Assembly: GCA_964518755.1 (NCBI GenBank)
Contig: CAZFHH010000001.1
Location: 1 to 61,916, forward strand
Direction of reading: 5' to 3'
DNA length: 61,916 nt
Source of the DNA: an uncultured Candidatus Saccharibacteria bacterium
GTDB lineage: Bacteria; Patescibacteriota; Minisyncoccia; Phycocordibacterales; Phycocordibacteraceae
Shown here: positions 1 through 50,799 of the stretch, piece after piece
Layout of the letters: each line of letters opens with the position of its first letter
How positions within the stretch are numbered: the first letter of the stretch is position 1
Made by a program: the position numbers and the translations under genes
The notes under the pieces: model-generated
Database searches by the model: none
The model's input: the letters and a program-made list of their open reading frames with translations, nothing else
Told to the model about the DNA's origin: nothing

Positions 1-393
1 AGGGAGCTGGGGGTACCCGAAATTCCACCTCGTGTGGAACTACGGTAAATTCAGTAACAAGGACTAAGTCGTAGGTGCAATCTGCACTCATGTTGCGACT
101 CTTAGCGAGCAATCGCTTTGCACAAACTTGGCTATATGCTGGAACGTCTGTGTATCCTGCGCTACGAGGTATATACTTAAATGATATGCCCGTGAAAATG
201 CGTCAGGTGCAGAAAATCAGCAGGGAAGTCCGCTGCGTGGAAACGCATGACCCCTCAGAGACTACACGCCGAGCTCCACAAAAATTACTTAGTAAGTTTT
301 GTGGATGAAGATATAGTCCATGCCTCATGGCGACATGGGGGTGCACATGAACAAGGCACGGCTAGCGGAAGCTGGTCGTGGATCATATCCAAA
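1..393 (+). rRNA. rrs: 16S rRNA gene, 3'-terminal part (truncated by window start), interrupted by an intervening sequence
   Basis: nt 2-21 GGGAGCTGGGGGTACCCGAA matches the conserved 5' strand of helix 44 (E. coli ~1415 onward). nt 44-62 GGTAAATTCAGTAACAAGG resembles E. coli GGUGAAGUCGUAACAAGG (to 1505). nt 357-380 CACGGCTAGC-GGAA-GCTGGTCGTG folds as a fully paired 10-bp helix 45 with the universal GGAA loop. It is followed by GGATCATATCCAAA, which aligns position by position with GGAUCACCUCCUUA. The small ORFs here (75..308, 247..525, 285..578) look spurious. Confidence 0.65.
63..356 (+). other. 294-nt intervening sequence inside the 16S gene; junction is ambiguous within the 7-nt direct repeat AACAAGG (56-62 and 350-356)
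   Basis: This stretch lies between the GTAACAAGG landmark and helix 45, where E. coli 16S is contiguous. It has no credible ORF. It is rich in tetraloop hairpins: AGCGA-GCAA-TCGCT (104-117), TGCGT-GGAA-ACGCA (234-247) and CCACAAAA...TTTTGTGG (276-304). Confidence 0.55.
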
Positions 394-50375: not shown

Positions 50376-50799
50376 TGGTGGAAGTGGGGAGAATTGAACC
50401 CCCGTCCGAATTCGGTCTTTGAGATGCGTCTACGGTGCGTAGCTTTTGTTTATATGTGAGACAAGGTGCGTAAATGAAAGCAAAATCCTCCTTGTCTCAT
50501 CCATTTTAAGATTTAAGCGATATCTCCAAATGGAAAGGGAATCGCCGATTTCGCAAAAGATGTCGCCTCATTATATTGTACGAACGCAAGATATAACGAA
50601 ACGCGCTTTCGAGCGACGAGCGTTATGCTCGAGCCGTTGCGAAAGCGAACGCAAAGTCGTTCATACCGAAGTATGGAGACACTGCGCGTGCAAGAGTTTT
50701 CTTGGCACTTATGGTTTGCTCGCACAGATTTAGGTGATAAGCGAGCGTGCACCGCACCGCACATTCTCAAAGAACAAACCGTCAAAGCCGGTCACCCCC
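50376..50799 (-). ncRNA. ssrA: tmRNA (SsrA), about 424 nt, CCA encoded
   Basis: On the minus strand the 5' end reads GGGGGTGACCGGCTTTGACGG. The 3' end reads GGACGGGGGTTCAATTCTCCCCACTTCCACCA (tRNA-Ala-like T arm and acceptor). It lies directly downstream of smpB. Confidence 0.9.

Follow-up and report, generated by a model that had tools for sequence, protein, structure and literature searches.

A probable group I intron without a reading frame near the 3′ end of a candidate phyla radiation 16S rRNA gene

The insert and its junctions

The stretch of DNA analysed here (the window, 61,916 nt) starts at base 1 of its contig (G000:C1:1-61916), in a genome of 672,743 bases and 29 contigs. The contig start cuts off the 5′ part of a 16S ribosomal RNA (rRNA) gene, and only the 3′ end of that gene lies within the window. 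This end is very probably interrupted by a group I intron of 277 nt, without an open reading frame (ORF), at 73–349 on the plus strand (the strand of all features of the gene given below). The intron falls between the equivalents of U1498 and A1499 of Escherichia coli, in the single 16S gene assembled. The upstream exon fragment (1–72) supplies the distal part of helix 44 and its 3′ strand, up to the U1498 equivalent; the downstream exon (350–393) supplies the motif AACAAGG (350–356), helix 45 (357–380, with a GGAA loop) and the 3′ tail GAUCAUAUCCAAA (381–393). The host, by inference at the level of the genus, is a bacterium of the candidate phyla radiation (CPR; Paceibacterota).

The assignment rests on an Rfam match, on the way in which exons join in relatives, and on the fold. 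The group I intron model RF00028 matches 78–340 (+) over its full length (model positions 1–253), with a score of 76 bits where the curated cut-off is 50; group II families give no match in 1–720, either at the gathering score or at an E value of up to 1. An original prediction, made from the letters of this DNA, had tentatively placed a folded intron of group I type in the 16S gene of a CPR bacterium near E. coli position 1498, beside the decoding-centre strand and helix 45. The model match and the covariation described below bear this out. The insert also lacks an ORF, as had been stated: its longest stop-to-stop frame is 77 codons, too short for a gene.

The exact boundaries come from the exons. 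In a permissive scan with the bacterial small-subunit (SSU) model RF00177, positions 1–73 align unbroken to model 1405–1490, with AAGUCGUA at 66–73 falling on model 1483–1490; the upstream exon thus ends with AAGUCGU (66–72). A BLAST search with 1–420 found matches in 77 of 101 related genomes (G000 included), and in many of these relatives query 1–72/73 and 350 onward are directly adjacent. The exons abut without a gap at 72|350 in 21 loci from relatives; two intron-less members of the genus have nearly identical exons, at 99% and 100% in G238 and at 97% and 98% in G115. One intron-less locus (L013) has a 3′ exon 98% identical to that of the window; there a single SSU match of 115.4 bits covers model 1356–1533 without interruption, taking in AAGUCGU|AACAAGG, helix 45 and the tail. 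It is by way of this locus that helix 45 and the tail of the type seen at 357–393 are placed by the model; in the window itself the unbroken alignment extends to 73. The intron is thus 73–349, because intron-less relatives join 1–72 directly to 350 onward. A73 and A350 are the same letter, which leaves BLAST ambiguous by one base; group I introns follow a U and end in G, and this rule sets the junctions at U72|A73 and G349|A350.

The insert without an ordinary 16S counterpart that the prediction had described is therefore present, with a length of 277 nt by the joins in relatives instead of the 294 nt (63–356 or 56–349) first given. Its 3′ junction, G349|A350, had been placed correctly: the exons of relatives join at 72|350, and all 16 distinct introns found at this site end in G. 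Helix 45 likewise stands where it had been drawn (357–366 with 371–380, around the GGAA loop at 367–370), except that it is not perfect, having 8 Watson-Crick and 2 G-U pairs. The U before the intron is SSU model position 1489 and the model ends at 1533; with an E. coli 16S rRNA of 1542 nt, model 1489 corresponds to E. coli 1498.

Helix map and covariation

Sixteen distinct introns, the window's included, occupy this exact site in related genomes. In all 16 the intron follows AAGTCGT, carries GCGAC within its first ~30 nt, ends in G and precedes AACAAGG. They divide into a family A of 11 members, to which the intron of the window belongs, and a family B of five with a different middle part. 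With the 5′ junction moved to 72|73, both of the elements that the original prediction had been unable to see, P1 with its internal guide sequence and P7, come into view, and all pairs of the mapped helices are canonical. The lower stem of P1 (67–72 with 95–100) pairs the exon end AGUCGU with the guide GCGACU and puts a U72-G95 wobble at the 5′ splice site; all 11 sequences have GUCGU/GCGAC (68–72/95–99) and the wobble, and four of the 11 form the A67-U100 pair. An upper stem (74–79 with 83–88) completes P1. A guide for the downstream exon, P10, is proposed for UGUU (91–94), which makes canonical pairs with AACA (350–353).

The remainder of the map is that of a compact group I core. P2 is a hairpin (101–120) with a GCAA loop of GNRA type at 109–112, replaced in relatives by different stems with a GUAA loop. 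P3 (127–132 with 268–273) encloses P4 (137–142 with 217–222) and P5 (148–150 with 210–212), both canonical and invariant; P5a (156–162 with 200–207); P5b (164–173 with 185–193), which is followed by an A-rich strand; and P6 (223–225 with 252–254), which includes the P6a hairpin (234–247) with its GGAA loop. The two GNRA hairpins that had been predicted at 104–117 (GCAA) and 234–247 (GGAA) exist, and are P2 and P6a. The P7 pseudoknot pairs 258 and 260–264 with 314–319, all canonically, with G260-C318 as the presumed guanosine-binding pair; its sequence fits the Rfam consensus UCAaAGACUA...gAAGAUAUAGUC and is invariant among relatives. P8 is a canonical hairpin (276–304), separated from the 3′ strand of P7 by J8/7 (305–313). 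BLAST matches of relatives break at query 277/303, around the P8 loop, where a LAGLIDADG_3 frame replaces 278–302. P9 (323–340) has 7 bp and a GCGA loop, again GNRA, and the terminal G (omega-G) is G349, with its counterpart in 16 of 16 distinct same-site introns.

Two other pairings were considered and set aside. GCUGGA (138–143), as a guide for UUCAGU, is a strand of P4 and lies beyond P3. Exon GGACUA (61–66) pairs with UAGUCC (314–319) in the minimum-free-energy fold; pseudoknots such as P7 are beyond the folding program, and relatives differ in the exon letter.

The Tetrahymena and Azoarcus introns, the mechanistic prototypes, share the U-G wobble in P1, the guanosine pocket in P7 and the terminal G; unlike those prototypes, the intron of the window has a P5a/P5b extension and no P2.1 or P9.1/9.2. 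Its J8/7-P7 segment resembles that of IC-type introns, and the GNRA loops on P2 and P9 could dock as they do in small bacterial introns. Group I introns of eukaryotic nuclear SSU rRNA genes, at S1506 and sites near it, sit in the same conserved 3′ area bordering helix 45 and have a J8/7-P7 sequence similar to that of the window (AAGAUAUAGUC); they are inserted 8 nt further downstream, and in another domain of life.

Thermodynamic folding agrees with the map. An unconstrained fold of 61–361 reaches -108.4 kcal/mol (z = -4.71; none of 100 shuffles folds as well), and it recovers P1 with its upper stem, P2–P6, P8 and P9. For covariation, the family-A introns were aligned separately over the 5′ core (A2, 11 sequences) and the 3′ core (A3, 11 sequences), since a whole-intron MAFFT alignment set the 3′ part of ORF-less introns against the ORF region. 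The G165 intron (L055), whose ORF upstream of P7 splits the 5′ core, is only in A3, and the partial G158 intron, at a contig end, is only in A2; the five family-B introns were kept out, as their middle parts differ. P2 and P6a stand outside the formal pair count, as gaps in A2 shift their strands, and so do P7 and P10, which span both alignments.

In the 5′ core, 46 pairs in eight helices have 98.0% of cells paired, and eight of the pairs are changed on both sides; the 500 shuffles average 93.6% paired cells and 3.0 such pairs, and none of them attains either value. It weighs against these controls that they are inflated, since the structure was drawn from one member of the alignment, the intron of the window, and the members are related to one another. 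Slid registers give 27.7–43.7% paired cells and at most 3 pairs changed on both sides. The compensatory changes fall in the upper P1 stem (3 pairs), P3 (1), P5a (3) and P5b (1). In the 3′ core, P9 has 100% of cells paired and five of its seven pairs changed on both sides. On the same negative side of the balance, lower P1, P4, P5, P6 and P7 are invariant in the 11 sequences, and for these helices covariation is mute, for or against. The putative P10 has three or four invariant pairs behind it, and these are partly missing in family B: GUU is invariant in family A, so that there is no covariation, and the pairing is absent in three of the five complete family-B introns.

Splicing and the alternatives

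The steps by which such an intron leaves its precursor are standard group I chemistry. In the precursor rRNA, the guide GCGAC (95–99) would pair with the exon end GUCGU (68–72) to form P1, the U72-G95 wobble marking the 5′ splice site; a free guanosine in the P7 pocket would attack after U72; the terminal G349 would then occupy that pocket; UGUU (91–94) may hold the downstream exon AACA (350–353) as P10; and the freed 3′-OH of U72 would attack after G349, so as to join AAGUCGU to AACAAGG and release the intron. We infer that the copy in the window is probably spliced in this way because its catalytic elements are intact, its fold appears to be under selection, and its site lies in the decoding-centre strand. 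Removal is presumed to be obligatory, because an unspliced 16S rRNA, interrupted in the decoding-centre strand before helix 45, is not expected to work.

Sequencing reads give an ambiguous picture. The share of the sampled words present in any RNA run is 0.05 at most; contigs from four runs (X4, X15, X17 and X19) were compared with the window. The remainder of the 16S gene is unassembled, which counts against the intron as part of a working gene: this copy need be neither the sole nor a functional one. The joint 72→350 is present in one X4 contig (a run of unknown kind), with a side of only 22 nt and one other letter. The same joint is present in one X15 contig (RNA), with a side of only 18 nt. 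With sides as short as these, and with intron-less relatives that yield an identical junction, the two contigs do not prove splicing. The joined X4 contig comes probably from an intron-less relative: among the X4 contigs one stops at 55 and two begin at 26, and we infer that the differing letter lies at position 56 and travels with the joined form, as a different allele. The low depth over the intron in RNA runs stems from relatives and was excluded as evidence.

Of the other explanations, the one that survives best, though still an improbable one, is that the intron is decayed or inactive, or that it is excised without ligation, in the manner of the intervening sequences cut out by RNase III; the product would be a fragmented 16S rRNA whose helix 45 and tail form a 44-nt piece of their own, unless the gene is a dead one. 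The ambiguity of the reads for this copy is compatible with that account, and any maturase or endonuclease gene has been lost from the intron. Passages of a survey of CPR rRNA genes (PMC11270868) indicate, moreover, that these bacteria tolerate unusual rRNA, and that fragmented 23S rRNA is known elsewhere. Against it stand the wobble, the guide, the sequence of the P7 pocket, J8/7 and the terminal G, all of them intact, and the compensatory changes across relatives, which point to a fold under selection. Sequences of the RNase III type lie at the tips of variable helices, whereas this site belongs to a universally conserved strand; an intervening sequence of that type was rejected on this ground and for the presence of a full ribozyme core. 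Nor was another SSU match, and hence a second 16S copy, found in the 29 contigs of a genome rated 97% complete.

A second alternative, that assembly joined an intron from another strain or species of the metagenome to the 16S end of this organism, is very unlikely. The contig does start inside the 16S gene, and the intron-less joined form co-occurs in X4 at the higher depth (117 vs 69). Set against this, an independent contig in X4 carries the intron and covers 26–379 with zero differences; 95% of the sampled words are present in three other runs, one of which may be the source sample; and the intron is continuous with genome-specific exon sequence on both sides.

The remaining alternative turns on a look-alike motif. 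The original prediction read GTAACAAGG at 54–62 as the landmark of E. coli 1497–1505; in the SSU alignment these letters fall at about model 1471–1479, in the 3′ strand of helix 44, and the equivalent positions read GTGACAAGG, ATGACAAGG or GTGACAGGG in most of 18 other loci compared. The 5′ junction drawn from this landmark, U55|A56, is displaced by 17 nt from the actual U72|A73 further to the right, as both the SSU model and the intron-less relatives have it. The wrong landmark also gave rise to a helix 44 shorter by 30 nt; relative to the bacterial Rfam consensus about 13 positions are absent, at its tip. As to the direct repeat AACAAGG that had been thought to bound the insert, both copies (56–62 and 350–356) are present and neither has a part in the junctions. 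The upstream copy reads AACAAGG in two of the 18 other loci, both intron-less, and GACAAGG or GACAGGG in the six other intron-bearing loci. Two 40-nt junction windows share a 7-mer in 1064 of 20,000 shuffles (5.3%), and the repeat is without significance. An insert of 294 nt bounded by this repeat (U55|A56 with G349|A350, or 62|63 with 356|357) beside a helix 44 30 nt shorter can be put aside almost entirely, even though the repeat exists and the U...G convention would be satisfied by U55 and G349: the SSU alignment continues through 63–73, intron-less relatives keep the equivalent of 56–72 and join at 72|350, no guide pairs with UUCAGU while GCGAC pairs with GUCGU in 16 of 16 same-site introns, and a repeat to be expected by chance at the rate just given is not kept in other intron-bearing loci.

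Relatives, mobility and neighbouring sequence

The group I intron at 73–349 has relatives with and without genes. The two ORF-less members of family A, those of the window and of G016, are both 277 nt long; eight ORF-bearing members of 765–805 nt have an open frame in place of the P8 loop, and the G165 intron (676 nt) has its frame elsewhere. Family-A frames tested (L003 and L004) encode LAGLIDADG_3 (Pfam, E = 4.7e-15 and 3.4e-14). Family-B introns measure 463–934 nt, and the frame tested there encodes LAGLIDADG_2 (E = 1.8e-40). Of 222 genomes of the genus, 159 have a match to the 16S end and 26 have one to intron DNA (E up to 1e-5); the site is confirmed in at least 18 genus genomes, in some of them partly (contig ends).

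A tree of the 5′ core groups the intron of the window with those of G168, G158 and G106, and that of G016 with the remainder, which suggests, weakly, that the ORF may have been lost twice in family A. The support of the split on which the direction of change depends (94/95) is below the tool's star threshold, and this tells against the inference. Most likely the window's copy descends from a mobile, LAGLIDADG_3-bearing intron that lost its gene; that the other members gained theirs instead is a less likely course of events that keeps some weight. Lacking a homing endonuclease gene, the intron is no longer able to home by itself. It would be one more case of the cycle of endonuclease gain and loss already described for CPR rRNA introns.

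Passages of that same survey (Tsurumaki et al. 2024, PMC11270868) give the setting. Insertions are present in 48% of 380 CPR 16S genes; 134 of 378 such insertions are group I introns, 49 of them ORF-less. They recur at sites named 16IS1-10, of which 16IS5 and 16IS10 are shared by LAGLIDADG_2 and LAGLIDADG_3, and an insertion at position 1498 is stated to encode LAGLIDADG_2. ORF-less and ORF-bearing forms at one site are described as nearly identical outside the ORF and scattered over the phylogeny, and insertions, first seen by Brown et al. 2015, as absent from transcripts (Brown et al. 2015, as cited in PMC11270868). The insertions at position 1498 agree with that of the window in clade, gene, position (1498 by count along the Rfam alignment) and group I type, and likewise in that some members have LAGLIDADG_2 or LAGLIDADG_3 and others none, as among the window's relatives. 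There is no essential difference; the 277-nt copy and its P1–P10 map are not described in those passages of the survey (PMC11270868), and the intron is an ordinary further example of a catalogued CPR feature. The introns of Salman et al. 2012 are also group I introns in a bacterial 16S gene, self-splicing in experiments and some with LAGLIDADG genes according to passages in papers that cite them; their host is a gammaproteobacterium, and they belong to subgroups IA3, ID and IC1 (passage in PMC4853749).

The family may reach further than this. A genome-wide pattern scan found the signature of the site (AAGTCGT, the GCGAC guide, GATATAGTCC, a terminal G, AACAAGG and helix 45) on records that are not labelled as CPR (loci L131, L124, L090, L136, L134, L100, L068, L070, L081 and L125). 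These are records of Solirubrobacterales (a 'chromosome 1' of 3.83 Mb, plus contigs of 2.7 and 1.7 Mb), of Acidimicrobiaceae or Acidimicrobiales (a 'chromosome 1' of 4.69 Mb, plus contigs of 1.77 Mb and 564 kb) and of Actinomycetota (contigs of 1.05 Mb and 4.8 kb), together with Acidiferrales and Micrarchaeota archaeon records. At least 27 loci are positive among the 80 matches listed of at least 120 stretches, a figure that is no estimate of frequency: many matches of the pattern are chance, and a strict expression for helix 45 scored about eight further 16S-like loci as negative. All three loci tested with Rfam have group I introns at the 3′ end of a 16S gene that is part of a 16S-23S(-5S) operon. 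Core blocks in the non-CPR-labelled loci are 70–100% identical to the intron of the window, and five of six long frames tested encode LAGLIDADG_3, four of them non-CPR-labelled and one labelled Paceibacterota.

That the family, as defined by site 1498, the GCGAC guide and LAGLIDADG_3 in P8, extends beyond the CPR is a proposition on which we would put an even wager. Judged by title, none of the papers returned by a literature search deals with group I introns of actinobacterial 16S rRNA. In passages of the survey (PMC11270868), group I introns at several CPR sites, among them 16IS10 (possibly position 1498), are given as unreported in other bacteria. If the labels are true, bacteria outside the CPR would have 16S group I introns at a site for which the 2024 survey, in those passages, knows of none beyond the CPR (PMC11270868). 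Homing would then have crossed phyla at a universally conserved target, and the ORF-less copy in the window would be a stranded remnant of such traffic.

One of these loci illustrates what the intron does to annotation. At L131 the SSU model reports a 'complete' 16S gene (model 1–1533) at 1124–2659, overlapping the intron match at 822–1180; the last SSU model positions are forced into the start of the intron, and because of this, automatic annotation of such genes would give a wrong 3′ end. An intron only 44 nt from the 16S 3′ end leads rRNA finders to stop the gene too early. It also splits the site of the 1492R-type primer (AAGTCGT|AACAAGG), so that the usual primer for the polymerase chain reaction would be expected to fail. 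The exact splice sites, the guide and the helix map allow the mature 16S 3′ end to be reconstructed.

Other group I introns of related type seem to occupy further sites in relatives' genomes, judging from stretches that resemble the P6–P9 core at 67–75% identity (L047; L033/L054 in G005; L034 in G012; L032/L051 in G014; L056 in G031). L047 (G115:C5:9143-9235) lies ~1 kb upstream of an intron-less 1498 junction and probably at another 16S site; the core-like DNA of G005 and G012 is ~14–16 kb from the 16S end. G050 has two 16S 3′ ends with different site-1498 introns: a 463-nt family-B intron with a degenerate frame (L031, contig C2), and the start of a family-A-type intron at a contig end (L005, contig C3). 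Either there are two rRNA copies or the bin is mixed.

The 16S 3′ tail of the window (381–393) is unusual in its own right. It reads GAUCAUAUCC against a consensus of GAUCACCUCC, without the CCUCC anti-Shine-Dalgarno core, and GAACAUAUCC is the reading of the tail in most members of the genus. With ORF starts taken naively at the first ATG, a GGAG, GAGG, AGGA or AAGG tetramer occurs in the 22 nt upstream of two of the window's 58 long ORFs, against 12 of 58 in a control placed inside the ORFs; this scarcity is in keeping with the missing CCUCC core. The regions upstream of the window's ORFs are A/T-rich.

Beyond the 16S gene on its 3′ side comes a spacer, with a perfect 20-bp hairpin at ~566–607 that surfaced as a spurious mir-1 match in the permissive Rfam scan, then a tRNA-Ile(GAU) gene (717–792, +) and, after that, protein-coding sequence. 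The rRNA genes of the host appear to be unlinked, because no 23S or 5S rRNA was found by Rfam across the 61.9-kb window. A gene for transfer-messenger RNA lies at 50376–50799 on the minus strand (RF00023, 110.6 bits); its tag-coding and pseudoknot region holds long insertions that the model lacks.

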